From: Pyrinomonadaceae bacterium
GTDB taxonomy: Bacteria; Acidobacteriota; Blastocatellia; Pyrinomonadales; Pyrinomonadaceae
Assembly: GCA_036563455.1 (NCBI GenBank)
Contig: DATCMK010000029.1
Coordinates: 2,396-66,395 of the forward strand
Length of the DNA: 64,000 nt
Reading direction: 5' to 3'
In this document: one piece after another, positions 19,101 through 62,554 of the stretch
Layout: every line of letters begins with the position of its first letter
How positions within the stretch are numbered: the first letter of the stretch is position 1
Made by a program: the position numbers and the translations under genes
Notes under the pieces: model-generated
The model's input: the letters and a program-made list of their open reading frames with translations, nothing else
Told to the model about the DNA's origin: nothing
The model's database searches: none

Positions 19101-19190
19101 TTTTAGCCGCGAACAAACACGAAAGGGCGCGAAATTTTCATGTTTGAAGTTAGATTAATTCGTGAAGTTTCGTGTTTGTTCGCGGCTGAT
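19101..19190. repeat. Family-1 palindromic intergenic element (copy a), immediately after the clpB stop
   Basis: ttttAGCCGCGAACAAACACGAAA...TTTCGTGTTTGTTCGCGGCTgat, with arms of about 20 bp perfect. Confidence 0.85.
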
Positions 19191-19250
19191 TTTTCCCAAA
19201 AGATAAATGGTTTGTTAGACTAAAACCTTACGATCTATTTATCGAAATTT

Positions 19251-19910
19251 ATGAGTTGGTTTAATAAAAAAAAGATGAACGAGAAAGATTTTAATAACGA
19301 AGAAATATTAGAAGATATTTTGGAAGAAAACGACGGTCAGGAAAGCGGCTTCGATTCGGAAGCGCCGAAACAGCAGGTCAAATCGATGCGCGAAACCGAG
19401 CTTGAAAACAAGCTGAAAGCCGAAACCGAGCGGCGCGAAGCGGCCGAAGCCAAACTCGTCGGCGTGCAGACGAAGTTCGAAGAAATCAAAACGCAGATGG
19501 AGCGCGAGACGCAGGAAATGCGCGGACGCATGCAGAAAACGCTCGAAGACCGCGCTAAACAGGGTCAGTTCAGCTTTTTGACGACGCTGCTGCCCGTTTT
19601 GGACAACTTGAACTTGGCGATCGATCACGCCGAAAAAGATTCGTCGCTCGAACATCTTTTGGGCGGGGTCAAAGGCACGGCGCGCTCGTTCGAGCAGGCG
19701 CTGATAAGCGTCGGCGTCGAGCCGGTCAAGTCGATCGGCGAGGAATTCAATCCCGAATTCCACGAGGCGGTCGATATGGTCGCGGTCGAACCGGAAAACG
19801 ACGGACGCATCACGGCGGAATATTCGCGCGGCTATCGTTTCGGCGACCGGCTGCTGCGTCCGGCGCGCGTGCAGGTCGGAAAAGCGATGGCGCAAACCGC
19901 CGGCGAATGA
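19251..19910 (+). CDS. grpE: Nucleotide exchange factor GrpE
   Basis: Coiled-coil N-terminus plus the GrpE C-terminal domain (..LLPVLDNLNLAIDHA.., ..HEAVDMVAVEPEN..). Confidence 0.85.
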   Translation: MSWFNKKKMNEKDFNNEEILEDILEENDGQESGFDSEAPKQQVKSMRETELENKLKAETERREAAEAKLVGVQTKFEEIKTQMERETQEMRGRMQKTLEDRAKQGQFSFLTTLLPVLDNLNLAIDHAEKDSSLEHLLGGVKGTARSFEQALISVGVEPVKSIGEEFNPEFHEAVDMVAVEPENDGRITAEYSRGYRFGDRLLRPARVQVGKAMAQTAGE

Positions 19911-19914
19911 TCTT

Positions 19915-20226
19915 ATGACCGCGAAAATTCCGCTCGCCTGTCGCCTGACCGATAAAGAGCTGCAGGCGCGACGAAAAAACTATCTCGATAAAGCCGCCGA
20001 ATCGCTGATCGATTCGGCGGAACTGTCTGACGGGTTCGTTTATCGTTTCCCGCTCCGCGACTCGACGCTCCGGGATTTGGCCGAGATCATCGAGCTCGAG
20101 CGAAAATGCTGCCCGTTTTTGAACTTCCGGCTGATCGTGAACGCCGGCGACGATTTCGTTTCGCTCGAGCTGACCGGCGCGGAAGGAACGAAAGAGATCG
20201 TCGAATCGCTATTTAACTGGAATTGA
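19915..20226 (+). CDS. Hypothetical small protein (103 aa, conserved CC pair), tightly coupled to grpE
   Basis: Starts 4 nt after the grpE stop. GC3-rich coding signal. No family recognised. Confidence 0.45.
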   Translation: MTAKIPLACRLTDKELQARRKNYLDKAAESLIDSAELSDGFVYRFPLRDSTLRDLAEIIELERKCCPFLNFRLIVNAGDDFVSLELTGAEGTKEIVESLFNWN

Positions 20227-20798
20227 AACACCTTTTGAAAATTACCGCCTTTACGGGGCTGAGCCTCGCCTTTTCGCTGACGTTGATCGCTTCGGGCTGC
20301 CGAACCGCGCCGGAAACGAAAACGGAAAATGCGAGCGCGCCGCCCGCTTCGGTGCAGCCCGCCGGAACGCCGCCGCGCGTTTCTCCGATATCCGTCCAGA
20401 CAATTCCGATCGACGTCCCGCGACTCGCCGGTAAATCCATCGACGAGCTCGATGAAGTTTTCGGCGCGCCGGAGGAAGCGAGTTCGATCGAGAGCGGCGG
20501 CGAGTTTCGTTTGTACCGGATCGGCGGGCAAAGCAAGGGCTTGGCGGTTCGCTTTTACGGCAAACGGGCGAAAAGTTTCAATTTGATTTTGGACGAACCC
20601 GTTTCGACGTCGCAATCGGCATTGAAACAAATTTTTAATATCGATGTCGGCGAATCCGCGCCGCTCAAAGACGCCCGGGAGCCGTTGACGGACGTTTACC
20701 GCGGCGTTTTCGGCGGCGTGAAGTTTAAAAAAGTTTCCGCCAAAAAACAGGAAAACGGAAAGGGATACATCTTCGTCCTCGCCGAGGTCGGGGAATAA
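20223..20798 (+). CDS. Hypothetical lipoprotein (TTG start, lipobox LIASGC)
   Basis: The TTG start overlaps the upstream stop. Signal peptide plus Cys lipobox. No family recognised. Confidence 0.5.
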   Translation: MKHLLKITAFTGLSLAFSLTLIASGCRTAPETKTENASAPPASVQPAGTPPRVSPISVQTIPIDVPRLAGKSIDELDEVFGAPEEASSIESGGEFRLYRIGGQSKGLAVRFYGKRAKSFNLILDEPVSTSQSALKQIFNIDVGESAPLKDAREPLTDVYRGVFGGVKFKKVSAKKQENGKGYIFVLAEVGE

Positions 20799-20955
20799 AC
20801 CTTTCAAGCGAAAGAATTTACCGCTCGGAAGCCCGTTATTTTCGGCTTTTCCCGAAAAAACTTTCAGCAAACGGTCGGCGAAATGATATGATATTTAAGG
20901 CAGAACGGACATGCTTTTCGGCATCAAAGTCTTAGTTTTAACAAGAGAGAAATAT

Positions 20956-24911: not shown

Positions 24912-24951
24912 GAAGCGAAAATCCCGTAAATATTTACGGGATTTTCGCTTC
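24912..24951. terminator. Perfect 40-bp palindrome GAAGCGAAAATCCCGTAAATA/TATTTACGGGATTTTCGCTTC between convergent genes (bidirectional terminator candidate)
   Basis: Read directly. Confidence 0.65.
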
Positions 24952-25245: not shown

Positions 25246-25593
25246 TTAAAAAAATAAACAGGTACGAAGTCACCGTGCTTCATACCTGCAGAAACATTAC
25301 CGTGTCCTTCTTTGACATGCTTACGAGGTTAGCTGACGGGCTAGAAGCAAAGAAGTCTTCCGCATCAATCGCTTGATGCTGCGCCCCGTGTTTCGTTTCG
25401 AAACTCTGGTTCCCCCGCGCCGCCTGCATTAAATTCAAGCGGCTTCAGCGACAAATTGTATTTAAGTTTATATAATTTCCGGACAAGAAAATCAAGTTTT
25501 AACAAAGCGCGCATTCGATCCGAGCAGCGCCGCACGCGTTGAATTTCATTCCCGAATAAAAATAAAAACGCCGTCAAGTATTCGAGCGTTGGT

Positions 25594-28230: not shown

Positions 28231-28341
28231 GAAGACGGAAGACAGTAGACAGTAGGCAGTAGATAGAATGTAGTGGGCGAAAATAATTTGTTTGTCCTCA
28301 ATCTACTACCTACTACCTTCCGTCTTCCGACTACTGTCTTC
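28231..28341. repeat. Large imperfect hairpin built from CAGTAG heptamers between the truB start and the esterase stop
   Basis: Left arm GAAGACGGAAGACAGTAGACAGTAGGCAGTAGAT and right arm ATCTACTACCTACTACCTTCCGTCTTC, plus a third arm GACTACTGTCTTC pairing with GAAGACAGTAG. Confidence 0.8.
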
Positions 28342-28347
28342 TATCCT

Positions 28348-29139
28348 CTATTCTTCCCCCATCGTCGGGTACAAAAATCTCAAGACTTCGCCGAAGCGCG
28401 CCGCCCATGCGGATTCTTCGTGACGGGCTTCGGGAAATTCGTAATAGGCGAAATCGAGATCGTTCCGCCAGCCGTTCGCGAGCAGGATTTCCTTGAGCGC
28501 GCGCACTTGATGCTTGATGCGCGAGCCTTCTTTTTTGCCGATGTCGAGCCAAATCCTGAGCGGCAGACGCTCGCCGGTTTTGGCGACCTCGCGAATGATC
28601 TGATTGTTCGCCCACCAGACCGACGGCGACAAAACCGCGAGCCGGCTGAAAACGTCCGGTCGTTTGAAGCCGAGATAAAGCGAAACCAACCCGCCTAAAG
28701 AAGAGCCGCCCAAACCGGTGTGCTCGCGTTCGGGCTTCGTCAGGTATTCGCGGTCGATGAACGGCTTTAATTCTTCGATGAGCATGCGCCCGTAATGATC
28801 GGCCTTGCCGCCGTGCCCGCGCATTTTGCCGGCGGCGCTTTTAACCGGCGTGTACTCGTCGATCCGCTTCTCGCCCGCATTGTAAATGCCGACGATGATC
28901 AGCGGTTCGATCGCGCCCGCCAAAATAAGATCGTTCGCCGTCCGGTCGACGCCCCAGACGATGCCGCCGAACGCGTCTTCCGGTCGGATCAGATTCTGCC
29001 CGTCGTGCATGTATAAAACCGGGTAGCGCCGCTTCGGCTCTTCGCCGTAACCGGGCGGCAGATAAACCAAAACCTTGCGCGGCGCGTCGAGGTGCTGCGA
29101 GCCGAAATTTTCATGTACCCTTACCTGTTCGTTTAACAT
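28348..29139 (-). CDS. Esterase (putative esterase/enterochelin-esterase-like family)
   Basis: Motifs LYMHDGQNL and GGSSLGG. Confidence 0.7.
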   Translation of the reverse strand: MLNEQVRVHENFGSQHLDAPRKVLVYLPPGYGEEPKRRYPVLYMHDGQNLIRPEDAFGGIVWGVDRTANDLILAGAIEPLIIVGIYNAGEKRIDEYTPVKSAAGKMRGHGGKADHYGRMLIEELKPFIDREYLTKPEREHTGLGGSSLGGLVSLYLGFKRPDVFSRLAVLSPSVWWANNQIIREVAKTGERLPLRIWLDIGKKEGSRIKHQVRALKEILLANGWRNDLDFAYYEFPEARHEESAWAARFGEVLRFLYPTMGEE

Positions 29140-29213: not shown

Positions 29214-29756
29214 ATGTGGCGCAAAAGGCTGGAAATTAAAGAAGAAAAGGAACGCATCATCGAGGATTTCGAAAAGGCGCGCCAGCGCACGCTCGACCGC
29301 GCCGTCAATCTTTTGACTTACAAGCCGCGCTCGGTCAAAGAACTGCGCGAGCGGCTGCTCGAAAAGGACTGGACGAACGAGCAGATCGTCGACGAAACGA
29401 TCGAAAAGCTCAAGTTTTACGGCTACGTCGACGACGCGCAGTTCGCGAAAAGCCTCGCCGCGTCGCAGATCCGCCAGAAGCCGGTCGGCAAGCGCGTCCT
29501 TAAACAAAAGCTCGCGCAGAAAAAACTCGACCGCGAAACCGTCGACGAGGCGATCGAAAAAGCTTTGGAAGAAACGCCCGAAGAGGAAATCATCGACCGC
29601 GCGATCGAAAAAAGATTGCGCCTCAAAGGCAAGCCGGAAACGCGCGAAGACGCCAAGAAATTTTACGATTTCCTGCTGCGGCAGGGCTTTTCCTACGATC
29701 TCGTGAGCCGCAAAATGCGCGAGATCGCAGCGAGAAGCTACGACGAAGGAAATTAG
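29214..29756 (+). CDS. recX: RecX family regulatory protein
   Basis: Repeated three-helix modules and a basic, coiled character. Size and composition fit RecX. Confidence 0.65.
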   Translation: MWRKRLEIKEEKERIIEDFEKARQRTLDRAVNLLTYKPRSVKELRERLLEKDWTNEQIVDETIEKLKFYGYVDDAQFAKSLAASQIRQKPVGKRVLKQKLAQKKLDRETVDEAIEKALEETPEEEIIDRAIEKRLRLKGKPETREDAKKFYDFLLRQGFSYDLVSRKMREIAARSYDEGN

Positions 29757-29830
29757 CCGCGAATTAACGCGAAAGCCCACGAAAAATATTTATAAGTTTC
29801 GTGGGCTTTCGCGTTAATTCGCGGCTAAAG
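29751..29830. repeat. Family-1 palindromic element (copy b). The recX TAG stop lies inside AATTAGCC.
   Basis: aattAGCCGCGAATTAACGCGAAAGCCCACGAAA aatatttataag TTTCGTGGGCTTTCGCGTTAATTCGCGGCTaaag, a perfect stem of about 30 bp. Confidence 0.9.
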
Positions 29831-29834
29831 AATC

Positions 29835-30176
29835 ATGAAAATCAATTACCACAACCGCGTATTCAAATCCGTCAGCAATTCCGAGACCGGAGAAGTTTCC
29901 GGCGAGACGCGATTTTTTTACCACCAGCGAGGAAACGTCGTCTGGGCGGAATACGAGGGCGGCGCAATTATTTTCGGCAATTTGATCGCGAGGGTTTATG
30001 AAGACGATTCACTCGAAATGTGCTACCAGCATTTGAACACGCGCGGCGAATTCATGACCGGAAAATGTTTGTCGACGCCCGAGATTTTAGTCAGCGGGAA
30101 AATCCGCCTGCATGAGAAATGGCAATGGACGAGCGGCGATTTTTCGAGCGGCGAATCTGTTATTGAAGAAATTTAG
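29835..30176 (+). CDS. Hypothetical protein (113 aa)
   Basis: ORF with coding-like composition. Confidence 0.45.
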   Translation: MKINYHNRVFKSVSNSETGEVSGETRFFYHQRGNVVWAEYEGGAIIFGNLIARVYEDDSLEMCYQHLNTRGEFMTGKCLSTPEILVSGKIRLHEKWQWTSGDFSSGESVIEEI

Positions 30177-30265
30177 AACTTAATTTAAATTATGAGCGTA
30201 TAACCAAACGACGAGGGCGGCGCTTCGGAAGGTGTTAAAGATCGCGAGCGTTCGCCCGGGCAAAA

Positions 30266-30799
30266 ATGCTCATCCTTTTTACAATTCTGGTCGTTTTATC
30301 GGCTGTCGCGGCGCTGGCGATCTCTTTCAAGCGCCGAAGCTCCAACTTTCCCGAACAAAATCCGCCGAAAAATTTTGAAGCAGAATCTTTCCGCCCGCTC
30401 TTTGAGCCGACGGAAGACGAGCTGCGCGCGTTCGCGCGCGAAGAAAATGCGCTTCGCGAGGCAAAAATGGCGGACGAAGCGCGTCGGGTTTTAGTTGAAA
30501 AATCCGAAATAGTTTCTGAATTTGAAAGAACGTGGCAGTCCGCGCCCGACCGAAAAGGGGCGATCGAACTACTTTTTCTGGCGTCGGCGAGCGAAAGCGC
30601 GCAAACCTTTGGCAAAGCGGCTGAAAAGGTCATAAATCTTTGGCGAGAAAACCGGATAGAAAATTTAACGGCACGGGATTTGGCTGACTTGTTGGACAGC
30701 CACTTCCGAATTTTACCCCAACAGGAAAGAACTTCGGGCGCGTTGTTTTGGCTGAAAGAAGAAATCCAGGCGCTGCGCGGCGAGGTCAGAGGAAATTAA
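30266..30799 (+). CDS. Hypothetical membrane-anchored protein upstream of the flotillin gene
   Basis: N-terminal transmembrane helix followed by a helical, charged domain. Not NfeD-like. Confidence 0.5.
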   Translation: MLILFTILVVLSAVAALAISFKRRSSNFPEQNPPKNFEAESFRPLFEPTEDELRAFAREENALREAKMADEARRVLVEKSEIVSEFERTWQSAPDRKGAIELLFLASASESAQTFGKAAEKVINLWRENRIENLTARDLADLLDSHFRILPQQERTSGALFWLKEEIQALRGEVRGN

Positions 30800-30890
30800 T
30801 CAAAAGGAGCGTGAAAAGACGACGAACTCGGCTGTCTGAGACGAATTTCGGCGTTTTTTCACTCCTGCCAATTTTCTTGAGGAAATAAGA

Positions 30891-33110
30891 ATGGAGAATA
30901 CGAATTTAATCGCTTTGGCTTTCGTGATCGGTCTGGCGCTGATCGGGCTCGGCATCGTCTGGTACATCATTACGCGCTTTCTGGTCAACATCGGCGCGAC
31001 CGAAGTCGGCATCAAAGAGCGCCGCTACTGGGGAACGAAAATGGCGCAGGGCCGGGTCGTCGCGACCGACGGCGAGATCGGCATTCAGGCGGAAGTCTTG
31101 AAACCGGGCTTGCACGTCGTCTTTTTCCCGATCGAGCGCGTGATTCAAAAAGTCCCGCTCGTCGAGATCGGCGCCGACGAAATGGGCGTCATCGAGGCGA
31201 TCGACGGCGAACCGATGCAGACCGGCTCGATCTTCGCGCCCGACCGCGCGCAGAACGCGCACAACAACTTCCAGGACCCGATCGCCTACATCAAACAGGG
31301 CGGCGTCAAAGGCATTCAGCTGCGCACGCTGCCGCCCGGAAAATGGGCGATCCACCCGTACCTGTTCCGCGTTTCGATCGCCAAGGCGACGGTCGTGCCG
31401 CCGGGAAAAGTCGGCATCATCACTTCGGCCGACGGCGCGCAGCTCGATCAGGGACGGCTGCACGGCAAAGCGATCGCGAAGCACAAAAACTTTCAGGACG
31501 CCGAATCGTTCATCTACAACGGCGGCCAGAAAGGTCCGCAGGTCGAAATCCTGACGCCCGGCACGTACCGCATTCACACGCAGTCGGTCGCGCTCGACAA
31601 CTCGAACGACTTCAAACCCGGACTTTTTACCGTCAGGCTGTTTGACGCGACCGTCATCACCGAAAATCAGATCGGACTCGTCGAAGCGCTCGACGGCGCG
31701 CCGCTCGATCCGCGCGATTACGTCGCGCAGGCCGTCACCGGACACGACAATTTCCAGGACAGTAACGAATTTATCGCGAAAGGCGGTCAGCGCGGACCGC
31801 AGAAGGACATTCTTTTGCCCGGCACTTACTACATCAACCCTTTGGTTTTCAAAGTCATTACCGAAACGGCGAAAGAAGTCAAACCCGGCGAGGTCGCGGT
31901 GATCGTCTCGAACGTCGGCAAAGACCCGGGCGCGGAAATCCGGCAGGCGATGGCGGCGAAGGTGCGCGAGCGGCTCGAACGCGAAGAACGCGAACAGATC
32001 AGCCGCGCCGCCGAACAGCTCGACAAGGTCGACGGCGACAACATCTCGGTCGAAGAGATCAAAGCCGAACTGCAGGCCGACGGCGACCCGGCGGACAAGC
32101 GTCTCGACGGCGGCGCGCACGAGGCGTACGTCGTGCCGGAAGGTTTTCGCGGCATTCAGGAAACGGTCGTCGGTCCCGGCAAATACTACATCAACACGCT
32201 CGCGATGACGCCGATCATCATTCCGACGACGAACATGACGGTCGAATGGACGGCGGAAGAGATCGACAATTCGTTCGACCCGTTCGCGGTCATTTCGAAA
32301 GACGGCTTCACGATGCAGCTCGAAGTGCGCGTCGTGTTCCGCGTCAAACCGGAAGACGCGCCGTTTATGGTCGCGAAAATCGGCAACACGGATCGCCTCA
32401 TTCAAAACGTGATGCATCCCCTGATCGATTCGATCTTCCGCAACCAGGCTTCGGAATCCTCCGCGATGGCGTATCTGCAGAACCGCCACGAAGAACAGGA
32501 ACGCGCCGAAGCGCGCGTGCGCATGCATCTTCTGAAATATCACGTCGACGTCGTCAACGTTCTGATCTGCCACATCCATCTGCCGGAAGAGCTGATGAAG
32601 ACGCAGACCGAAAAAATCCTCGCCGAGCAGAAACAGAATATGTTTTCGGCGCAGCGCGAGGCGGAAGTCAAACGTATCGAACTCGAAAAGACGCGCGCGC
32701 ACGCCGACAATCAGAAGAATCTGATGGAGGCGACCGTCGGCGTCGAAATCGCGGCGAAACGCTCGGAACAGCGCAAGAACGAGGCGGACGGCGAAGCGTA
32801 TTACATCTCGTCGACCGGTAAAGCCGAGGCAGAAAAAATGCGGCTCATCGGCGAAGCGCAGGGCGTCGCGTACAAAGAACAGGTCAACGCGCTCGGCGCG
32901 AACGGCGTCGCGCTCGTCGAAACCCTGAAAGTGATCGGCGAAAAAGGCGTCCGCATCACGCCCGACATCATGGCTTCGGGCGGCGGCGCCGGGAGCGAAG
33001 GCGGCGGCATCGGGACTTTGCTGCTCTTGAATCTCTTCCGCGACCAGATGCAAAAGCAAAACGGCAACGGCGCGGTCGTCGCGGCGCCGACGAACGGCGA
33101 TAAAAACTGA
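30891..33110 (+). CDS. Flotillin-like SPFH/band-7 protein
   Basis: N-terminal transmembrane helix, SPFH domain, long EA-rich coiled coil and a Gly-rich tail. Three internal repeats of ..NFQD..(F/Y)I..GGQ(K/R)G(P/I)Q.. are present. Confidence 0.8.
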   Translation: MENTNLIALAFVIGLALIGLGIVWYIITRFLVNIGATEVGIKERRYWGTKMAQGRVVATDGEIGIQAEVLKPGLHVVFFPIERVIQKVPLVEIGADEMGVIEAIDGEPMQTGSIFAPDRAQNAHNNFQDPIAYIKQGGVKGIQLRTLPPGKWAIHPYLFRVSIAKATVVPPGKVGIITSADGAQLDQGRLHGKAIAKHKNFQDAESFIYNGGQKGPQVEILTPGTYRIHTQSVALDNSNDFKPGLFTVRLFDATVITENQIGLVEALDGAPLDPRDYVAQAVTGHDNFQDSNEFIAKGGQRGPQKDILLPGTYYINPLVFKVITETAKEVKPGEVAVIVSNVGKDPGAEIRQAMAAKVRERLEREEREQISRAAEQLDKVDGDNISVEEIKAELQADGDPADKRLDGGAHEAYVVPEGFRGIQETVVGPGKYYINTLAMTPIIIPTTNMTVEWTAEEIDNSFDPFAVISKDGFTMQLEVRVVFRVKPEDAPFMVAKIGNTDRLIQNVMHPLIDSIFRNQASESSAMAYLQNRHEEQERAEARVRMHLLKYHVDVVNVLICHIHLPEELMKTQTEKILAEQKQNMFSAQREAEVKRIELEKTRAHADNQKNLMEATVGVEIAAKRSEQRKNEADGEAYYISSTGKAEAEKMRLIGEAQGVAYKEQVNALGANGVALVETLKVIGEKGVRITPDIMASGGGAGSEGGGIGTLLLLNLFRDQMQKQNGNGAVVAAPTNGDKN

Positions 33111-33132
33111 TCGATAAAAGCCGGAACGCGAT

Positions 33133-33162
33133 AAAAGGCCGGGGAATTTCCCGGCCTTTTTC
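33133..33162 (+). terminator. Rho-independent terminator after the flotillin gene
   Basis: aaaaGGCCGGGGaatttCCCGGCCtttttcg. Confidence 0.8.
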
Positions 33163-33685
33163 GCGTTTGTAACGGGATTAATCGAAAAGGCGTCAAAATT
33201 TCGAATACGACTTAACTTCAAAAAATTTTGAATCCGAATTCGTATTCCCGACGAAATAGATTAACGAGACCGTAGATATTTGCTCTGCCGAAGCAACGGT
33301 CTCGGATGTGCATGGGAAGAAGCGAACGGCTGATGAGCAGCGAAAAAAATCGACGTTTTTCCGCCGCTCTCGTTCGCCGGGTCGGTATTTTAGGTTTGCT
33401 TGCCGACGCTCCTCCAGAGAGAAAGCTGCGCGCATAAAATTCCGACAGCGCAGCAACCTCAATGTAGTTAATCTCCTTTCTACATTGACGCCGGACGTTT
33501 CCGCTGAAAAACGTCCGGCATTTTTTCGCGGCGGCGTTCGGAAAGATTTCCTCGCTCGGCTCCCGCCGCGGCGCTTTTCCTGTACGGTTTGACGCGGTTT
33601 TTCTTTTCCCTCAAAATTATATATTTCCCGTCGGCGTTAAAAGCGGCTCGCCATTGATTTCATGCCGCCGGGCGGGATTTAAGTT

Positions 33686-34222
33686 ATGATAAAAAGGCGT
33701 TTTTACATCGATTTCGGGCGAAGCGCCGATCACGCGCTCGATTATTTTCTCGGAATTGTCGAGGACGCGCGCGTGACGACCGTTCAGCAGGTCGAAAAGC
33801 TGCCAATCGAGGCGCTGCACTGGCAGTATCAGCCGGGCTGGAACACGATCGGCGCGCTATTGTCGCACATTACGGCGATCGAGCATTACTTTCGCATCGA
33901 ATTCGTCGAAGGGCGAAAGTTGACCGACGAAGAAAATAAAAGATGGGGGCCGGCGCTCGACATGGGCGATTTTCTGCCGCGGCTGATCACGAACGAACCG
34001 GTCGAAAAATACATCGCCGGGCTCGAAGAATCGCGTCGACTGTTGCTCGAAGCGCTGAAAAACGTGACGTTCGAGGATTTTGCGAAACGGCGCGCGGGCT
34101 ACGACGAGGAAACGGGCTGCAATCTCGCCTGGGTTTTGTACCACATGGCGGAGGACGAAGTTCATCACCGCGGGCAGATCAGTCTTTTGCGCAAGCTTTA
34201 CAAATCGGCGACGCAAGTCTGA
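33686..34222 (+). CDS. DinB/YfiT-like (DinB_2) metal-binding protein
   Basis: Four-helix DinB_2 pattern with a conserved H..H..H triad (LSHITAIEHY.. and EDEVHHRGQI). Confidence 0.7.
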   Translation: MIKRRFYIDFGRSADHALDYFLGIVEDARVTTVQQVEKLPIEALHWQYQPGWNTIGALLSHITAIEHYFRIEFVEGRKLTDEENKRWGPALDMGDFLPRLITNEPVEKYIAGLEESRRLLLEALKNVTFEDFAKRRAGYDEETGCNLAWVLYHMAEDEVHHRGQISLLRKLYKSATQV

Positions 34223-34394
34223 AAATGCTTATAAGCGGGCGAGAAAAGATGTATTTCTCCGCCGCCGAGACGAAGCGCTCCGAATCGGGAAAACCGGCAT
34301 CTAAAATATTTACTTTTATAAAAAACCGCGGGCGGCGAATTCGGACGGCGCCCGCCAAAGACTTATCATAAAAGGTATTTAATAAATTATTTAT

Positions 34395-37088
34395 ATGACT
34401 GGAAACGAAATCAGACGCAAATTTTTAGAGTATTTTGAGAAAAACGGGCACAAAGTCGTTCATTCGTCGCCGCTTCTGCCGGCGAACGACCCGACGCTGC
34501 TTTTCACGAACGCGGGCATGAACCAGTTCAAGGACGTTTTCACCGGTCAGGAAAAACGCGATTACAAGCGCGCCGCGTCGAGCCAGAAATGCATCCGCGC
34601 CGGCGGCAAGCACAACGACCTCGACGAAGTCGGCAAGACCGCGCGCCATCACACGTTTTTCGAAATGCTCGGCAATTTCTCGTTCGGCGATTATTTCAAG
34701 GAAGACGCCATCAAATTCGCGTGGGATTTTCTCGTCAATGAGCTCGGCTTGGAAGAATCGCGGCTCTGGTTTTCGTATTTCGGCGGCGACGCGGAAGTTC
34801 CGGCGGACGAGGAAGCGCGCGATTTGTGGATCAAAGTCGGCGCTCCGCCCGAACGCGTGCTGCCGTTCGACCGCAAGGACAATTTCTGGCAGATGGGCGA
34901 CACCGGACCGTGCGGACCGTGCTCGGAAATCCATTATTACATGGGCGACGATCCCGACGATCCGGAAAAGAACCGCGCCGATCTGGTCAACGCCGAAAAC
35001 GGCGATTTGACGATGGAAATCTGGAATCTCGTCTTCATGCAATTCGAGCGAAACGAAATCGAAAAGGGCGTTTTCGAGCTCACGCCGCTGCCCGCGCCGT
35101 CGGTCGACACCGGCGCCGGTTTGGAGCGCATGGCGGTCGTTCTGCAGGGCGTCAAATCGAACTACGACACGGATTTGATCAAGCCGATCATCAACAAAAC
35201 CGCCGAATTAGCCGAAAGATTTTACGAGCCGGAAACGCAGAGCGGTTTCGCGATGCGCGTCGTCGCCGATCACGCACGCGCGGCGGCTTTCGCGATCGCC
35301 GACGGCATTTTGCCGGGCAACGAAGGCAGAAATTACGTTTTAAGAAAGATCATGCGCCGCGCGATTTATCACGGGCGCGATCATTTGGGATTCGAAACCT
35401 TATTCTTTCATAAAGTCTGCGATTTCGTTATCGAATTGATGAAGGAAGCTTTTCCCGAACTCGAAACGCAGCGCGAATTTATCGGCAAGATGGTGCGGCT
35501 CGAAGAAGAAAGATTCGCCAACACGATGACTGTCGGGTTGAAAAAATTGGATGAATTTTTCGCTAAAAGCGATGAACCCGACTTTATCGAATTCGCCAAG
35601 CTTTACGACACGTTCGGGACGCCGCGCGATCTGGTGCGCGTCAAACTCGAAGAACGCGGCATCGAAATGAGCGAAGAGGAATTTAACGAAAAATTCGACC
35701 GGGCGCTGCAGGAATTACAAAAACAGAGCGACATCGGAAAAACTCGGCAAGCCGAAAAAATCAATCCGATTTACGCCGATCTGCAAAATCTCGGAATTAA
35801 ATCGAATTTTCACGGCTACGACAAAACGGAAGTCGAAGACGCGAAGGTTCTGGCGTTGGTGAAAAACGACGAGCGCGTCGACGTGCTCGACGAAGGCGAA
35901 GAAGGTTTGGTCGTTTTGGACGAAACGCCGTTTTACGCCGAAGCGGGCGGTCAGGTCGGCGATACCGGCGTGCTTTTCAACACGAACGCGCAAATCAAAG
36001 TTTTCGACACGTTCGCGCCGATCGGCGGAATCGTTTTGCATAAATCAAAAGTAGAACGCGGAAGTTTGTCGGTCGGCGACGAGGTGACGGCGACCGTCGA
36101 CGTTCTCAAACGCGACGCGACGCGCCGCAATCACACGGCGACGCACCTCGTTCACGCCGCTTTGAAGGAAGTTTTGGGCACGCACGTCAAGCAGGCGGGC
36201 TCGGTCGTCGCGCCGAATTACCTGCGGTTCGATTTCACGCATTACCAGCCGATCTCGCCGGCAGAATTGCAGGAAATCGAAGATCTGGTCAACCGCTACA
36301 TCCTCGAAAATCATCCGGTGACGACGAACGTCATGGCGATCGAGGAAGCGATGCGCTCGGGCGCGGTCGCGCTCTTCGGCGAAAAATACGGCTCGTCGGT
36401 TCGCGTTTTGAGCGTCGGCGGCGGTGAATTTTCGCGCGAATTATGCGGCGGCACGCACGTCCGCGCGACCGGCGACATCGGCTCGTTCAAAATCACGTCC
36501 GACGAAGCGATCGCTTCGGGCGTCCGAAGAATTCGCGCAATCACCGGTTTCGACGCGTTCGAGCGTTTCCGCGAAGACGAAAAACTGATCGCCGATTCGC
36601 TCGGCATTTTGAAAACGCAGCGCGATAATCTGCCGAACGCGATCGAGAAATTGCAGGAAGAACTGAAACGTACGCGCAAGGAAGTCGACGAGCTGAAGAT
36701 GAAGATCGCGACCGGCGCGGTCGGCGGCGCGTCTTCGAACGGCGACGAGGCGAAAGACGTTTCCGGCGTCAAAGTCATCGCGAAAACGGTCGAAGGTTTG
36801 GACAAAGGCGGCATGCGGCATCTTTCCGACACGTTGATGTCGAAAATCAAATCCGGCGTCGTCGTTTTGGGCAGAACCGACGAAGGCAAAGTCTCGTTCA
36901 TCGTGCGCGTGTCGGACGATTTGACCGGCAAAGTTTCCGCCGGCAACATCGTGCGGGAAATCGCGCCGATCGTCGGCGGTCGCGGCGGCGGCAAACCCGA
37001 CATGGCGGAAGGCGGCGGCACGGACGGATCGAAATTAAACGAGGCTTTGGAAAAAAGCTACGAAGTCGTCGGGCAAATGCTCGGCTAA
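34395..37088 (+). CDS. alaS: Alanine--tRNA ligase
   Basis: 897 aa. Class II core (FTNAGMNQFK..), editing domain and a C-terminal C-Ala domain. Confidence 0.95.
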   Translation: MTGNEIRRKFLEYFEKNGHKVVHSSPLLPANDPTLLFTNAGMNQFKDVFTGQEKRDYKRAASSQKCIRAGGKHNDLDEVGKTARHHTFFEMLGNFSFGDYFKEDAIKFAWDFLVNELGLEESRLWFSYFGGDAEVPADEEARDLWIKVGAPPERVLPFDRKDNFWQMGDTGPCGPCSEIHYYMGDDPDDPEKNRADLVNAENGDLTMEIWNLVFMQFERNEIEKGVFELTPLPAPSVDTGAGLERMAVVLQGVKSNYDTDLIKPIINKTAELAERFYEPETQSGFAMRVVADHARAAAFAIADGILPGNEGRNYVLRKIMRRAIYHGRDHLGFETLFFHKVCDFVIELMKEAFPELETQREFIGKMVRLEEERFANTMTVGLKKLDEFFAKSDEPDFIEFAKLYDTFGTPRDLVRVKLEERGIEMSEEEFNEKFDRALQELQKQSDIGKTRQAEKINPIYADLQNLGIKSNFHGYDKTEVEDAKVLALVKNDERVDVLDEGEEGLVVLDETPFYAEAGGQVGDTGVLFNTNAQIKVFDTFAPIGGIVLHKSKVERGSLSVGDEVTATVDVLKRDATRRNHTATHLVHAALKEVLGTHVKQAGSVVAPNYLRFDFTHYQPISPAELQEIEDLVNRYILENHPVTTNVMAIEEAMRSGAVALFGEKYGSSVRVLSVGGGEFSRELCGGTHVRATGDIGSFKITSDEAIASGVRRIRAITGFDAFERFREDEKLIADSLGILKTQRDNLPNAIEKLQEELKRTRKEVDELKMKIATGAVGGASSNGDEAKDVSGVKVIAKTVEGLDKGGMRHLSDTLMSKIKSGVVVLGRTDEGKVSFIVRVSDDLTGKVSAGNIVREIAPIVGGRGGGKPDMAEGGGTDGSKLNEALEKSYEVVGQMLG

Positions 37089-37091
37089 TTT

Positions 37092-37216
37092 TAAGCCGCG
37101 AATGAAAAGATTTTTTTACTTAGCGGCTTCGCGCCTTTGCGGGAGAAATAGTTTCCCGCAAGGGCGTAAAGCCGCATAAGAAAACCAAGACCGAAATCCG
37201 CGAAATTCGCGGCTAA
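37092..37216. repeat. Composite element after alaS: family-1 outer arms enclosing a family-2 hairpin
   Basis: Outer arms AGCCGCGAAT...ATTCGCGGCTaa. Inner hairpin GCGCCTTTGCGGGAGAaatagTTTCCCGCAAGGGCG at about 37129-37167. Confidence 0.8.
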
Positions 37217-37230
37217 TTTTTTTAACTCAT

Positions 37231-37977: not shown

Positions 37978-37983
37978 AATGGT

Positions 37984-38062
37984 TTTTAGCCACGAACAAA
38001 CACGAAATAACACGAAAACCGGTTGAATTTATTTCGTGTTGTTTCGCGTGTTCGCGGCTGAT
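37984..38062. repeat. Family-1 palindromic element (copy d)
   Basis: ttttAGCCACGAACAAACACGAAAtaaCACGAAAA...TTTCGTGTTGTTTCGCGTGTTCGCGGCTgat. Confidence 0.85.
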
Positions 38063-38125
38063 TTCAAGGCAACTTTAAGCCCCGTAATTCATCCAAATAA
38101 ATCACCCTAAATTATTGAATTTTCA

Positions 38126-39196: not shown

Positions 39197-39204
39197 AAAA
39201 GAAA

Positions 39205-39283
39205 TCAGCCGCGAGCGAACACGAAATGCGCACGAAATAAATTTACTGATTTTTCGTGTCCGTTCGTGTTCGCTCGCGGCTGA
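39205..39283. repeat. Family-1 palindromic element (copy e) between convergent genes
   Basis: atcAGCCGCGAGCGAACACGAAAtgcgCACGAAA...TTTCGTGtccgTTCGTGTTCGCTCGCGGCTgat. Confidence 0.85.
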
Positions 39284-39289
39284 TTTTGA

Positions 39290-40318: not shown

Positions 40319-40321
40319 ATA

Positions 40322-40789: not shown

Positions 40790-40947
40790 TCTGTTAAAAT
40801 CACCTAAAGCAGAATAATATTCGGAAAAACATTTGTCAAGAAAAATCATAAAAAGATGCGCGGAAAATAAATTTCTTGTCAATTTTCTGTCACAATCGTT
40901 ATGTTTTCGGTGTTCTTTAATTAGTAACTCGCGGGGTTCATTCAACG

Positions 40948-49301: not shown

Positions 49302-49378
49302 GGCTGGGTAGCTCAGCTGGTTAGAGCGTGGGATTCATAACCCCAAGGTCGGGAGTTCAAGTCTCCCCCCCGCCACCA
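49302..49378 (+). tRNA. tRNA with anticodon CAT (elongator Met-like; Ile2 not excluded); CCA encoded
   Basis: A cloverleaf can be drawn by hand with D-stem GCTC/GAGC, anticodon loop TTCATAA, T-arm GGGAG-TTCAAGT-CTCCC, acceptor GGCTGGG/CCCCGCC with one U-C mismatch, and a 3' ACCA. The G1-C72 pair argues against an initiator. Confidence 0.85.
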
Positions 49379-51314: not shown

Positions 51315-51396
51315 ATTCGGCCGCGAAGTAGCACGAAAATTCACGAAAGGTTTTTAAAGTGTTTTTCGTGTTATCTCGTGTTATTTCGCGGCTAAG
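51315..51396. repeat. Family-1 palindromic element (copy f) upstream of recN
   Basis: attcgGCCGCGAAGTAGCACGAAAattCACGAAA...TTTCGTGttatcTCGTGTTATTTCGCGGCTaag. Confidence 0.8.
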
Positions 51397-51426
51397 TTTT
51401 ATGCTAATCTGTGATTTACAATTTTT

Positions 51427-53112: not shown

Positions 53113-53194
53113 ATTAGCCACGAAAAAACACGAAAAAGGTAAAAATTTCAGTGAGATCTTTCGTGAAATTTCGTGTCTGTTCGTGGCAAAAATA
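53112..53194. repeat. Family-1 palindromic element (copy g), directly abutting the recN TAA stop
   Basis: taaATTAGCCACGAAAAAACACGAAAA...TTTCGTGaaaTTTCGTGTCTGTTCGTGGCaaaaat. Confidence 0.85.
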
Positions 53195-53198
53195 TATT

Positions 53199-54221
53199 AT
53201 GCAATCGGAAATCTTAGCGAAAGTGATTCGCGGCGAAACAGTCGAGTCCGTGCACCGCGGGCATCTCTTCATCGTCGACGGCGCGGGCAACGAAATCGTT
53301 AACATCGGCGACGCGGAAACCTTGGCGTTTATTCGTTCTTCGGCGAAGCCTTTTCAGGTTTTGCCTTTTTTGATGAGCGGCGGCGCGGAAAGGTTCGGTT
53401 TTCTGGAATCGGAGATCGCGCTCGCGTGCGCGTCGCATTCGGGCGAAAAGATACACACGACGATCGCCGAAAAAATGCTCAAAAAAATCGGATTGGCGGA
53501 ATCGGATCTGCGCTGCGGCGCGCATCTGCCGTTCAACGAACAGCGCGCCGAGGAAATGATCCGCGCGGGCGAACGGCCGACGCAGCTGCATAACAACTGT
53601 TCGGGCAAACACGCCGCGATGCTCGCCTTCGCGCTTCTTCTCGGCGCCGACATCGAGACTTACGATTCGGTCGACAATCCGGTTCAGCGGGCGATTTTGC
53701 GGACGATCGCGGATTTCACCGAAACGCCCGCCGAAGAAATCCCGATCGCCGTCGACGGCTGCGCCGCGCCGAATTTCGCTTTGTCGGTGAGGGCGATGGC
53801 GAAAGGCATTTTGAAGCTCGTTTTTCCGCCCGCCGATTTCGGCGCCGAGCGGCGCGAAGCCTGCCGCCGCGTCGTCACCGCGATGATGAATTACCCAGAG
53901 CTCGTCGGCGGTACGGAAAGGTTGGACACGCTTTTAATGACGGCGGCGCGCGGGCGGTTCGTCTCGAAAATCGGCGCGGAAGGCGTCTGGCTGTGCGGCG
54001 TTTTGCCCTCCCCGCGATGGGAAAAAGGCTTGGGCATCGCGCTGAAGATCGACGACGGCGACGACAAGCGCGCCCGCGCCGTCATTTCGATCGAGGTTCT
54101 GCGGCGGCTCGGGATTTTTGAAGAATCGACGCTCGCCGAATATTCGCCGCTGCCGATCAAAAACCGCCGCGGCGATACGGTCGGCAACGTCGAGACAAGC
54201 GTAAAATTAGCCACGAATTAA
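53199..54221 (+). CDS. Asparaginase-II-like (PF06089) family protein
   Basis: Carries the HNNCSGKHAAML motif and has the overall size of the family. I chose the start at MQSEIL, outside the repeat. The last five codons (KLATN) and the stop are encoded by the next repeat copy. Confidence 0.55.
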   Translation: MQSEILAKVIRGETVESVHRGHLFIVDGAGNEIVNIGDAETLAFIRSSAKPFQVLPFLMSGGAERFGFLESEIALACASHSGEKIHTTIAEKMLKKIGLAESDLRCGAHLPFNEQRAEEMIRAGERPTQLHNNCSGKHAAMLAFALLLGADIETYDSVDNPVQRAILRTIADFTETPAEEIPIAVDGCAAPNFALSVRAMAKGILKLVFPPADFGAERREACRRVVTAMMNYPELVGGTERLDTLLMTAARGRFVSKIGAEGVWLCGVLPSPRWEKGLGIALKIDDGDDKRARAVISIEVLRRLGIFEESTLAEYSPLPIKNRRGDTVGNVETSVKLATN

Positions 54222-54285
54222 CTCGAATTAACGCGAATTTATTTTAATTCATTTCGTGAAATTTCGTGTCTATTCGTGGCGAAAT
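54203..54285. repeat. Family-1 palindromic element (copy h), containing the stop codon of the preceding gene
   Basis: aaaATTAGCCACGAATTAACTCGAATTAACGCGAA...TTCGTGaaaTTTCGTGTCTATTCGTGGCgaaat. Confidence 0.85.
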
Positions 54286-55856: not shown

Positions 55857-55913
55857 ACGCCTTCCGGCGTTGAACCGCGACCGAAAGCTATCTCGATGAT
55901 CCTTAAATTCTTA

Positions 55914-55977
55914 CTTTGCGGCTTTGCGGCTCTGCGGGAGGACGAAAATTTCCCGCAAAGACGCAAAGCCGCAAAGG
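55914..55977. repeat. Family-2 element: CTTTGCG tandem repeats forming an inverted repeat around GCGGGAGG...TTTCCCGC
   Basis: CTTTGCGGCTTTGCGGCTCTGCGGGAGGacgaaaatTTCCCGCAAAGACGCAAAGCCGCAAAGG. Confidence 0.8.
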
Positions 55978-56027
55978 AAAACGCGAAAAATTTCGACCGG
56001 TTAAATTGTTTTTGAGATAGCTGCCGG

Positions 56028-56067
56028 AAAAAAACGCGACCGTTTATTAAACGGTCGCGTTTTTTTA
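56028..56067. terminator. Bidirectional terminator: A-run, perfect hairpin, T-run between convergent genes
   Basis: aaaaaaACGCGACCGTTTattAAACGGTCGCGTttttttt. Confidence 0.8.
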
Positions 56068-59513: not shown

Positions 59514-59578
59514 AACGCGAAGACGCGGAGGGCGCAAAGAAATTATAAAAATCTTTGCGCCCTCCGCGTCTTCGCGTT
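59514..59578. terminator. Perfect 27-bp-stem hairpin between convergent genes, followed by a T-run (bidirectional terminator; family-2-related core GCGCAAAGA/TCTTTGCGC)
   Basis: AACGCGAAGACGCGGAGGGCGCAAAGAaattataaaaatTCTTTGCGCCCTCCGCGTCTTCGCGTTgaaatttttt. Confidence 0.8.
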
Positions 59579-60681: not shown

Positions 60682-60736
60682 CTTAGATGCAGAAAACGCA
60701 TCTAAGCTTTGTATGATTATACAATTGGCGGCAAGA
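60682..60736. promoter_or_regulatory. Two adjacent palindromes in a divergent promoter region: CTTAGATGC-N7-GCATCTAAG and TTGTAT-GATT-ATACAA
   Basis: Read directly. Confidence 0.45.
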
Positions 60737-60781
60737 TTCAACTTTCTTCCCCTTTGTGCTAATCTAACTCTTTAAAAAATT

Positions 60782-60991
60782 ATGCCTTTAGTGAAATGTC
60801 CATCCTGCGGAAAGGAAATCGAATACTCGAGCGAGAACGAATTTCGCCCGTTCTGCTCGGAACGCTGCAAATTGATCGACTTCGGCGCGTGGGCTGACGA
60901 AGAATACGCTTTGCCGACGCAAGACACCGCGCTCGCGGAAGAAGATCTGGAAAAAATCGAACGCGCTCTCAAGGAAAAAGGAGAATTATGA
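60782..60991 (+). CDS. yacG: DNA gyrase inhibitor YacG (zinc-binding)
   Basis: CPSCGK..x..FCSERCK zinc ribbon. Length 69 aa. Confidence 0.8.
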   Translation: MPLVKCPSCGKEIEYSSENEFRPFCSERCKLIDFGAWADEEYALPTQDTALAEEDLEKIERALKEKGEL

Positions 60992-61236
60992 TTTCGACGA
61001 TTCTACTGATCGAGCTTCTGCCCGTTTTCGGCGTCGTGTTTTTTCTGATTTTCGCCGCCGTCGCCTTCATCGCCTACAAAATGCTGAAAAGAACCGTCAA
61101 AATGGCGGTGCGCATGACGATCGTCGTCGCGATTCTGCTGATCGCGCTCGTCGGTTCGGTCGCGCTTCTGATGTTCGCCGGCAGCAGCAAAACTTCGACG
61201 CCGACCAAACCGGCGCCGACTCGCACGAACCGCTGA
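60988..61236 (+). CDS. Small hypothetical membrane protein (2 transmembrane helices)
   Basis: Overlaps the yacG stop (ATGA). Hydrophobic. Confidence 0.45.
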   Translation: MISTILLIELLPVFGVVFFLIFAAVAFIAYKMLKRTVKMAVRMTIVVAILLIALVGSVALLMFAGSSKTSTPTKPAPTRTNR

Positions 61237-61242
61237 TCCTGA

Positions 61243-62475
61243 ATGATCCAAAGGATAAAAAAATTCTTTGCCCGGTACCAAAACATGTCGGGCAATGTCT
61301 TCGCTTTAAGTCTGGTCAGTCTTTTGAACGACACTTCGAGCGAGATCATTTATCCTCTTTTGCCGACCTTTCTCGCCTTGACGCTCGGCGCGTCGCCGTT
61401 CGCGATCGGGCTGATCGAGGGCTTCGCCGAATCGGTCGCCGCGCTTTTGAAGCTTTTTTCCGGCTACCTGAGCGACAAATTCAATAACCGCAAACTTCCC
61501 GTTTTCATCGGCTACGCGCTCGCGAGCGTGACGCGCCCGCTGCTCGCGTTCGCCGGCAGCTGGCAGCAGGTCTTGGCCGTGCGCGTGACCGACCGGGTCG
61601 GCAAAGGCATTCGCGGCACGCCGCGCGACGCGCTTTTAGCCGATTCCGTCGCGCCCGAAAAGCGCGGGCTCGCCTTCGGTTTCAACCGCGCCGCCGACCA
61701 CATGGGCGCGGTTCTCGGTCCGGTCTGCGCGTTCGTTCTGCTTTATTTTCTGGCGGGCGATCCGCAGAATCCGACGGCGCGCGATTACCGGCAGGTTTTT
61801 CTGTTCGCTTCCGTTCCGGTCGCGCTCGGGCTTTTCGTGATCGTCTTTTTCGTCAAGGAAAAACCGCACGAAACGCCGATCGCGAGCGGCGCGCTGACGC
61901 CGATCAGGCTTTCGCTCACGGAGTTCGACGGCAACTTCAAACGCTTTCTGCTCGTCGTCGCGGTTTTCACGCTGTCGAATTCGACCGACGCGTTTCTGCT
62001 GCTGCGCGCCGAGCAGTCGGGCGTCGCGCCGCCCCTGCTGCCGCTTTTGTGGATGGCGCTGCACGTCAGCAAGGTTTTGTTCTCGCTCGTCGGCGGCGAT
62101 CTTTCCGACCGTTTCGGACGCAAAACGCTGATCTTTGCGGGCTGGCTCGTTTACGCGCTCGTTTACGCCGGTTTCGCGTTCGTCGCTTCCGAGTGGCAGG
62201 CGTGGGCTTTGTTCATCGTCTACGGCGTTTATTTCGGACTCACCGAAGGCGTCGAAAAGGCGCTCGTCGCCGATCTCGTTTCGCCGGAAAAACGCGGCAC
62301 GGCGTACGGGTTTTACAACCTCGCCTTTTCGATCACGGTTCTGCCCGCCTCGATTTTGTTCGGGCTTTTCTGGAGCAGGCTCGGCGCGGCGCCCGCCTTT
62401 CTGATCAGCGCCGCGATTTCGCTGTGCGCCGCCGTTTTGCTTTTGACCGTTAAAGCCAAACAGGAAGAAAATTAG
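61243..62475 (+). CDS. MFS transporter
   Basis: 12-transmembrane architecture and MFS loop motifs (..RVTDRVGKGIRGTPRDA..). Confidence 0.8.
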   Translation: MIQRIKKFFARYQNMSGNVFALSLVSLLNDTSSEIIYPLLPTFLALTLGASPFAIGLIEGFAESVAALLKLFSGYLSDKFNNRKLPVFIGYALASVTRPLLAFAGSWQQVLAVRVTDRVGKGIRGTPRDALLADSVAPEKRGLAFGFNRAADHMGAVLGPVCAFVLLYFLAGDPQNPTARDYRQVFLFASVPVALGLFVIVFFVKEKPHETPIASGALTPIRLSLTEFDGNFKRFLLVVAVFTLSNSTDAFLLLRAEQSGVAPPLLPLLWMALHVSKVLFSLVGGDLSDRFGRKTLIFAGWLVYALVYAGFAFVASEWQAWALFIVYGVYFGLTEGVEKALVADLVSPEKRGTAYGFYNLAFSITVLPASILFGLFWSRLGAAPAFLISAAISLCAAVLLLTVKAKQEEN

Positions 62476-62554
62476 CCACGAACGAACACGAAAGGACACG
62501 AAACATAACTTAAAAATCTTTCGTGAAAATTCGTGCCCGTCCGTGGCTAATTTT
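62468..62554. repeat. Family-1 palindromic element (copy i), containing the TAG stop of the MFS gene
   Basis: aaaATTAGCCACGAACGAACACGAAAggaCACGAAA...TTTCGTGaaaaTTCGTGCCCGTCCGTGGCTAATtttt. Confidence 0.85.

Follow-up and report, generated by a model that had tools for sequence, protein, structure and literature searches.

Intergenic palindromes of a Pyrinomonadaceae genome are probably gene-less members of a widespread superfamily associated with the GxxExxY gene

In this study, we have analysed a stretch of 64,000 nucleotides (hereafter, the window) from the genome of a Pyrinomonadaceae bacterium (assembly GCA_036563455.1, contig DATCMK010000029.1, positions 2,396 to 66,395 of the forward strand), in which a family of palindromic repeats is dispersed between the genes. 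The nine copies are probably short, gene-less members, similar to miniature inverted-repeat transposable elements (MITEs) or repetitive extragenic palindromic (REP) sequences, of a widespread palindrome superfamily whose full form carries a gene of the GxxExxY family in its loop. The window copies are best read in this way because the same arms flank the GxxExxY gene in relatives, composite elements have been copied, and the occupied sites turn over. Their identity as gene-less, GxxExxY-associated elements is well supported by association. The form of about 80 bp found in the window would contain a short AT-rich loop in place of the gene, and its relation to the full-length element may be that of a MITE to an insertion sequence (IS), or of a REP sequence to the gene of a REP-associated tyrosine transposase (RAYT).

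A first-pass annotation of the sequence had reported nine copies, and all of them are present, exactly at the positions given or within a few bases. Eight are canonical and one is composite; they measure 75-125 bp, and all nine are intergenic and lie 3' of stop codons. They are listed here in window coordinates, with no strand assigned, together with their scores in an arm weight matrix and their folds compared with shuffled sequences (z):

19103-19189, canonical three-box palindrome in the clpB/grpE gap; left arm 19103-19134 and right arm 19158-19189, scoring 37.1 and 35.2 bits; fold -46.2 kcal/mol, z -8.4
29753-29828, canonical palindrome in the gap between recX, whose stop is the TAG of TTAGCC, and an avidin-like gene; 37-nt arms, 95% complementary; fold -58.2 kcal/mol, z -12.4
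37092-37216, composite, degenerate copy in the gap between alaS and an alpha/beta hydrolase gene; outer clamp TAAGCCGCGAAT ... ATTCGCGGCTAA, left arm truncated, right arm partly kept; fold -65.3 kcal/mol, z -8.8
37123-37175, nested inner palindrome of another box type (CTTTGCG / CGCAAAG), within the 37092 element
37986-38061, canonical palindrome in the gap between the alpha/beta hydrolase gene and an SPL-like gene; left arm 43.2 bits, right arm with a 1-nt indel; fold z -5.8
39205-39283, canonical palindrome with the clamp variant TCAGCC, between the convergent SPL-like and EamA genes; outer arms of 24 nt, 100% complementary; fold -57.5 kcal/mol, z -12.3
51317-51395, canonical palindrome in the gap between an M14 peptidase gene and recN; arms 28.1 and 36.7 bits; fold z -9.4
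53114-53190, canonical palindrome starting 1 nt past the recN stop and ending 8 nt before an asparaginase-like gene
54207-54283, canonical palindrome into which the asparaginase-like open reading frame (ORF) reaches by 15 nt; fold z -5.0
62472-62550, canonical palindrome after an MFS transporter gene, whose stop is the TAG of TTAGCC; fold z -7.9

A strict two-arm pattern matched the window five times, compared with 0.00 times in 100 shuffles, and the arm weight matrix found 17 arms of at least 16 bits, compared with none in the shuffles; it detected no copies in the window beyond the nine. All nine copies fold much more stably than their shuffled sequences, with z-scores between -5.0 and -12.4. 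The window belongs to a 74-kb contig of JGI metagenome 3300039308 and has a GC content of 55%; its gene content and nearest relatives indicate Pyrinomonadaceae / Blastocatellia (Acidobacteriota). Gene calls with Pfam domains cover most of it; since its intergenic share is 8.7%, the probability of finding nine of nine copies between genes by chance is about 8e-12, in agreement with the earlier statement that copies occur only there. Other parts of that description have to be adjusted. The inverted arms are long, but they are not always near-perfect, as their complementarity ranges from 71% to 100%. The upstream gene takes its stop codon from the element in the case of recX and the MFS gene (the TAG of TTAGCC), and the asparaginase-like ORF uses a TAA located 15 nt inside, but recN and clpB, for which the same had been claimed, stop upstream of the element and not within it; the stops of recN, clpB, alaS, the alpha/beta hydrolase gene, the SPL gene and the M14 peptidase gene are found 1 to 22 nt 5' of it. 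That copies bracket single genes, as noted earlier, does not make these genes cassettes: the elements fill successive gaps between conserved housekeeping genes, and the order of recN and the asparaginase-like gene is syntenic in relatives devoid of the element.

The element consists, in this order, of an A-tract, the clamp with its first box (TTAGCC-RCGAA), two further boxes (CRCGAA), each preceded by a 4-nt spacer (N4), an AT-rich loop, and the mirror image ending in GGCTAA and followed by a T-tract. One or two CACGAAA units at about 10-bp spacing had been described after the clamp; the phasing is confirmed, and is an exact 10-bp period, but there are three CRCGAA boxes in each arm, namely the clamp box and two more. 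Among 139 arms from other genomes, the third box, which lies outside the search pattern, is kept by about 63% to 91%, according to the position. The ends read TTAGCCRCGAA ... TTCGYGGCTAA, with GAAT rather than GAAC in most members of the family, and some copies contain perfect tandem 10-mers. RNAalifold predicts three helices with unpaired spacers between them and compensatory changes in six predicted pairs. In 108 elements, the boxes and the base after each box covary between the two arms, and the complementarity of the inner spacer to its partner arm (0.30-0.42) does not exceed that seen with randomly chosen arms (0.31-0.40). Thus, the boxes and their phase, rather than base-pairing as such, are what is conserved, which lends support to the earlier idea of a phased binding array. 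In 57 oriented elements, G:U pairs are as frequent on the sense strand as on the antisense strand (98 versus 100), and no asymmetry of G:U versus A:C is seen; the sense transcript alone thus shows no sign of being under selection, and selection on sense-strand RNA is not supported. Upstream of the element the flank is rich in A and downstream it is rich in T, to an equal extent for either direction of the upstream gene: T reaches a frequency of 50-78% at positions +3 to +8, the upstream A-tract is equally strong, and the stems are of at least 30 bp with internal loops. A simple terminator scan returned 52 sites where 46 were expected and is uninformative.

The connection with the GxxExxY family came from a solo arm in locus L096, which leads to a 124-aa ORF assigned to PDDEXK_3 in Pfam (PF13366) and to GxxExxY in NCBIfam (TIGR04256). 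This ORF has more than 3,300 close homologues, of which those named come from Pyrinomonadaceae or from Acidobacteriota metagenome-assembled genomes (MAGs), many of them on very short contigs. That solo arms might be the ends of a larger transposon was rejected, their neighbours being ordinary genes. Arms beginning with TTAGCCACGAACAAACACGAAA... flank the GxxExxY ORF in loci L166, L167, L169, L180, L178, L179 and L096, and at every site retrieved the ORF occupies the loop of a CACGAA element with arms that match those of the window, the first 22 nt being identical to window copies and the arms scoring 30-43 bits on the matrix of the short elements. Besides L096, these sites lie between hemN and hemH (L166, L178), between M14 peptidase and MFS genes (L167), and between M14 peptidase and NfeD genes (L169, L179, L180). 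The full-length element, of about 435-530 bp, comprises a left arm (the TTAGCC clamp and three boxes of 6-7 bp in 10-bp phase), the gene of about 124 aa and an inverted right arm, in either of two layouts, arm-gene-arm or arm-arm-gene-arm, and in every case examined the ORF is co-oriented with the upstream host gene.

A second clade of the protein, about 40% identical, has named members in Planctomycetes, Verrucomicrobia and Caldithrix, and CACGGAT arms flank it at four further sites (L190, L191, L197 and L200), including prfA|prmC and an RND (resistance-nodulation-division) pump operon. Cultured bacteria were sampled through seven annotated plasmids or megaplasmids that carry GxxExxY. The gene lies within CACAGAG arms between radA and an FAD protein gene in Bacteroides finegoldii, within CACAGAG arms in Bernardetia, and within CGCGAAG arms between fabD and fabG in Sphingomonas parapaucimobilis; in Treponema, one box pair is present. 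The two protein clades compared thus have different box 'dialects', and the boxes also vary across the plasmid examples. The whole family forms 28,935 clusters at 50% identity (E <=1e-3) and is nearly absent from viral contigs. The GxxExxY profile detected no additional member when about 1.2 Mb of untargeted loci were scanned, so that the ratio of gene-bearing to gene-less copies is about 1:100.

The GxxExxY protein looks like a predicted minimal PD-(D/E)XK nuclease, apparently active. Its AlphaFold model, computed from a 145-sequence alignment (predicted local distance difference test score 94.9), displays the alpha-beta-beta-beta-alpha-beta core and the E ... D ... (D/E)xK residues of this fold, and all 145 sequences, from both clades, share E31 (the glutamate of GxxExxY), D70, E80 and K82. 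A sequence search of the PDB with the protein detected no solved structure. The sole survey that lists the family gives its function as unknown and describes multiple transfers between divisions (PMC3424549), and no literature linking GxxExxY to inverted repeats was found. Many of the top hits, among them the protein representatives P0241-P0244, measure about 260 aa and contain a tandem pair of GxxExxY domains; they may be fused dimers.

The strict pattern occurs in at least 111 places in species-representative genomes, where less than one would be expected by chance, and the family is thus not private to this genome. Most of the matches belong to Acidobacteriota; others come from Planctomycetota, with a 4.9-Mb chromosome among them, from Chloroflexota, with a 4.4-Mb contig, and from Nitrospirota, Nitrospinota, Bacteroidota, Proteobacteria and additional phyla. 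The versions are lineage-specific: that of the window, GAACAAACACGAAA, is the one of Pyrinomonadaceae, and Terriglobia have GAATGAACACGAAT. The absence of a recognisable described family is upheld: Rfam, at gathering and permissive thresholds, returned only spurious microRNA-hairpin models and no matching family, full-text literature searches with the arm sequence returned only primers, and blastn of the consensus element against a plasmid collection gave no match. Viral contigs yielded three pattern matches, one of them in a true phage with many arms. This contig (L118, IMG/VR UViG 3300032053_000240) carries tail genes and more than ten arms, some of which are inverted, 0.7-1.5 kb apart, around phage ORFs. 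In a Cryomorphaceae MAG contig (L013, positions 1-600), four elements are arrayed head to tail together with a conserved spacer of about 40 bp, and the unit recurs every 114 bp or so.

With crude ORF calls, 95 elements were classified by context: tandem genes enclose 56 of them, convergent genes 32 and divergent genes at most six, and one is inside an ORF, whereas the background intergenic gaps were 235 tandem, 73 convergent and 81 divergent (there being no applicable background for ORFs). The distance to the facing stop codon peaks at -3, where the element's own TAG is the stop (18 cases), and at 2-10 nt. This bias towards tandem and convergent gaps, along with the nine of nine intergenic copies in the window, corroborates the initial description of dispersed, extragenic, REP- or MITE-like palindromes placed 3' of genes.

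The sites also show how these palindromes turn over. Another species, a Pyrinomonadaceae MAG (locus L026), retains the clpB-grpE copy at the orthologous site, within flanks of 70-74% identity. There, the two outer boxes are preserved, a G-C pair of the clamp has become A-T by a compensatory change, and both the third box and the loop have diverged. At the site 3' of recN, relatives with 91-92% RecN identity have palindromes of the same build with CGCAGAT / CGCGGAT boxes, more distant relatives have CACAAAA, GCAAAG or GTTAGAG boxes, and one relative has no element. Of four species compared at one orthologous site, three have a CACGAA element, and the remaining one has a nested CACAGA / CAGGGAT composite. 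In the haem operon of L178, a composite with outer CACGAA arms and a CACAGAT palindrome nested in the loop is present at three intergenic sites, and the three composites share 84% identity over about 210 bp, a stretch that takes in the linkers, the inner loop and an asymmetric box common to all of them; they were therefore copied as a unit. The same composite occurs once in L166 with a 70-aa ORF in the inner loop, and L166 also has a 207-aa lipoprotein-like gene in the composite loop where the L178 composite is empty. Nesting such as that at 37123-37175 is also met in loci L178, L166 and L097, and the nested window copy at 37092 fits the composite pattern of L178 and L166.

A wider proposal can be put forward tentatively, as one possibility. 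GxxExxY proteins may be the dedicated nucleases of a class of unrecognised compact mobile palindromes present throughout bacteria; each protein clade would have its own box of 6-7 bp, occurring three times in an arm, and the protein would spread itself together with hundreds of gene-less hairpins that settle behind stop codons, with the intervening sequences (IVS) of 23S rRNA as a special case. On the reading given at the outset, the elements would spread by copying. The nuclease would recognise the boxes and cut at the element ends, leading to transposition; alternatively, it would cut a gene-less copy, and repair from a gene-bearing copy with the same arms would transfer the loop content, by homing or break-induced copying. 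Gene conversion between copies would make the arms uniform while the loops diverge. In transcripts, the arms would form a long stem of three segments that hosts tolerate or exploit, be it for cleavage by RNase III, for stabilising mRNA 3' ends or for leaky termination in both directions. The combined stop-plus-terminator module envisaged earlier must be taken with reserve, as related elements are present within operons (fabD-fabG, prfA-prmC and hemN-hemH in the haem operon), and because of these locations leaky termination, RNase III processing or 3' stabilisation is likelier than efficient termination.

Several observations weigh against the association of the window repeats with a mobile GxxExxY element. 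There is no GxxExxY gene in the window, and the nuclease link is therefore drawn from relatives with the same arm sequence. Among the seven plasmid examples, that of Persicobacter has no arms and those of Fusobacteria ZRK30 and Gemmatirosa show variant layouts, and MAG taxonomy labels can be wrong for short contigs. Other cargo is also found between arms, namely the 207-aa lipoprotein-like ORF, the 70-aa ORF and phage genes, so that GxxExxY could be a frequent passenger and not the driver. The closest GxxExxY homologues occupy the same syntenic sites in different species (hemN|hemH, M14 peptidase|NfeD), which has the appearance of long vertical inheritance rather than active movement. The loops of copies within one genome bear no relation to one another, and hence any burst of copying would be old, or the arms would be held by conversion or selection. 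No target-site duplication could be defined, as the flanks are palindromic A/T tracts and a TA beside GCC would be self-complementary, and the orthologous sites compared gave no clean pair of filled and empty sites marking an insertion.

Some of these points would suit a different order of events, in which the hairpins came first, as host 3'-end structures or an independent repeat, and GxxExxY is a homing-endonuclease-like or passenger gene lodged in their loops instead of their mobiliser. Unrelated cargo in the loops and synteny of the GxxExxY copies across species agree with this history, and so does the constant co-orientation of the ORF with the upstream host gene, as for a gene needing read-through transcription. 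However, the arm-gene-arm arrangement is nearly universal for this one protein family, the box sequence varies with the two protein clades and among plasmid examples of other phyla, and no other mobilising gene was found; we consider this origin unlikely. It is also conceivable that the repeats evolve in place as common bidirectional intrinsic terminators or as hairpins that stabilise mRNA, their boxes being homogenised by slippage and quasi-palindrome correction without any mobility. The preference for gene 3' ends and the depletion of divergent gaps, the symmetric A-tract and T-tract flanks and the strong folds are all compatible with such hairpins; perfect tandem 10-mers in some copies point to slippage, and relatives present one architecture with many unrelated unit sequences. 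Evolution in place is nevertheless improbable, being difficult to reconcile with a 32-nt arm that recurs across phyla, with composites copied as units, with the balance of G:U pairs between strands and an inner spacer free of pairing constraint, with elements within essential operons, and with T-tracts that are no more than moderate.

Two further explanations appear to us very improbable. The position and the dimer-like palindromic form of the elements resemble REPINs, and Acidobacteria do encode TIRYT genes with their own repeat families (PMC3733652), so that the window copies might be REP/REPIN-type or terminal-inverted-repeat (TIR)-type repeats moved by a RAYT or TIRYT tyrosine (HUH) transposase. 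REP sequences are defined as short imperfect palindromes with a conserved unpaired GTAG (or CGTC) tag (PMC3733652), whereas no such tag is present in the consensus of 139 arms, whose ends, TTAGCC / GGCTAA, are base-paired, and the arms are tandem boxes rather than short hairpins. The link to a RAYT suggested earlier was not found in the sampled loci, which are not whole genomes: the gene found between the arms is the predicted PD-(D/E)XK nuclease GxxExxY, and the sole visible Y1_Tnp-like gene (L178, 14687-15292) is flanked by unrelated 28-bp terminal repeats, on which basis RAYT/TIRYT was rejected for this one visible case. Just as remote is the explanation that the elements serve a host DNA-binding protein (a nucleoid protein or a response regulator, for example) as phased operator arrays and have nothing selfish about them. 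The boxes hold an exact 10-bp phase while spacers and loops vary, and the elements are strand-symmetric, as such arrays could be, but the neighbouring genes are unrelated and reveal no regulon logic, the location is 3' of genes and not at promoters, elements are nested and copied as units, and several box types coexist in one genome.

Gene-less members of a GxxExxY-bearing superfamily would have counterparts in several known systems. Like the REP/REPIN-RAYT system (REPtron), they would combine hundreds of extragenic palindromes located 3' of genes, frequently no more than about 15 nt from the stop codon, with one or a few copies of an enzyme gene that is flanked by the same repeats in inverted orientation and is vertically inherited; unlike it, the arms consist of three phased boxes instead of a 20-40 bp hairpin, and the partner is a predicted PD-(D/E)XK nuclease instead of an HUH tyrosine transposase. 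With MITEs and their parent IS (Correia/NEMIS, RUP, ERIC, Nezha) they share a short non-coding form with the same terminal inverted repeats as a longer gene-bearing element, as well as the intergenic location, the co-transcription and the folding into hairpins. In contrast, the parent here would be of about 0.5 kb and without any known transposase family (its sole domain is PF13366 / TIGR04256), and the element is almost all arms, with no definable target-site duplication.

The closest architectural match is the IVS of 23S rRNA, which likewise have a long terminal stem and a small ORF in the loop. In Coxiella, the IVS has a 28-bp terminal stem and, in the loop, a small ORF beside which the GACAGAT heptamer is repeated three times in tandem, and is excised by RNase III, its origin and means of movement being unknown (PMC4990558). 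The sporadic distribution of IVS (Coxiella burnetii, Leptospira, with the S23p ORF) suggests horizontal transfer, and they are regarded as selfish (PMC4990558). They differ from the present elements in that IVS lie inside 23S rRNA helices (9, 25 or 45), whereas the palindromes are found between protein-coding genes and the window contains no rRNA; in that the IVS ORF encodes a four-helix-bundle protein and not a predicted PD-(D/E)XK nuclease; and in that the gene-bearing elements are here vastly outnumbered by gene-less copies. Integron attC sites, which are also imperfect palindromes after ORFs and would seem to bracket single genes, were rejected: the elements lack the core sites RYYYAAC / GTTRRRY, the genes that they bracket are housekeeping genes in syntenic order, and the window has no integrase. 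A resemblance to CIRCE failed on sequence. There is also a resemblance to the short tandemly repeated repetitive (STRR) heptamer repeats of cyanobacteria and their small dispersed repeats, which form intergenic tandem arrays of 7-nt units, often in inverted blocks, with small elements nested in one another; they are not known to be linked to a nuclease gene.

If the link between GxxExxY and the palindromes is causal, a very large uncharacterised family (TIGR04256 / PF13366) would gain a function, the common intergenic hairpins of Acidobacteriota, Planctomycetota, Bacteroidota and other phyla would gain an origin, and the unexplained IVS of 23S rRNA would be tied to a general element design. 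A system based on PD-(D/E)XK would then stand beside the HUH-based REP/RAYT paradigm for domesticated or selfish palindromic repeats, and the pairing of boxes with proteins suggests a set of small nucleases with readable sequence specificity. From a practical point of view, intergenic hairpins of this class break assemblies and spawn spurious ORFs, and the arm model can be used to mask or annotate the repeats in MAGs. An independent assembly of the same strain, a Logan contig from SRR13207077 (L003) that is 100% identical to window positions 29799-41356, starts inside the right arm of the 29753-29828 palindrome, just beyond the loop, and many GxxExxY contigs are shorter than 2 kb; the palindromes seem to fragment short-read assemblies.

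The window contains other palindromes (again with no strand assigned), the first of which has a box type resembling the arms around the Sphingomonas GxxExxY gene:

4388-4502, probable superfamily member of another box type (GCAAAG / GCGAAG units), assigned by architecture alone; 36-nt arms, 86% complementary
28231-28348, palindrome of GACAGTAG-like tandem units, with a shared build principle and an unrelated unit sequence
55911-55979, GCAAAG-type palindrome, tail-to-tail with the clamps central, assigned by architecture alone
59514-59578, perfect palindrome of GCGAAG / GCAAAG type between convergent genes; 27-nt arms, 100% complementary

Perfect short palindromes at 56028-56066 and 24912-24951, the former a classic bidirectional terminator (A7-stem-T7), indicate that ordinary terminators are also in use in this genome.

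In the haem gene cluster, which seems to gather small selfish genes, L178 carries at 14590-15430 a 201-aa Y1_Tnp-like gene (weak match) with its own 28-bp inverted repeats (AAAATTCTCGCGGCTGTGCCGCCCGATG), which looks like a TIRtron unrelated to the CACGAA family. L166 carries in the same cluster, at 12657-13270, a PIN-domain gene with a DUF2281 partner (weak match), a toxin-antitoxin-like pair. The window also includes a cyclic di-AMP (ydaO/yuaA) riboswitch at 25303-25460 on the minus strand (69 bits), 5' of small ORFs without Pfam domains, and a tRNA gene at 49302-49375 on the plus strand (Rfam, 62.7 bits), located in the long gap preceding a 128-aa ORF. Just 5' of recN, at 51396-51426, there is a TTTACAAT motif that is conserved in relatives (L121-L127) and is followed, in several of them, by tandem AAAATCC heptamers (CAAAATCCAAAATCCAAAATCTAAAATCG); this motif may be an operator of SOS/LexA type or a promoter element.

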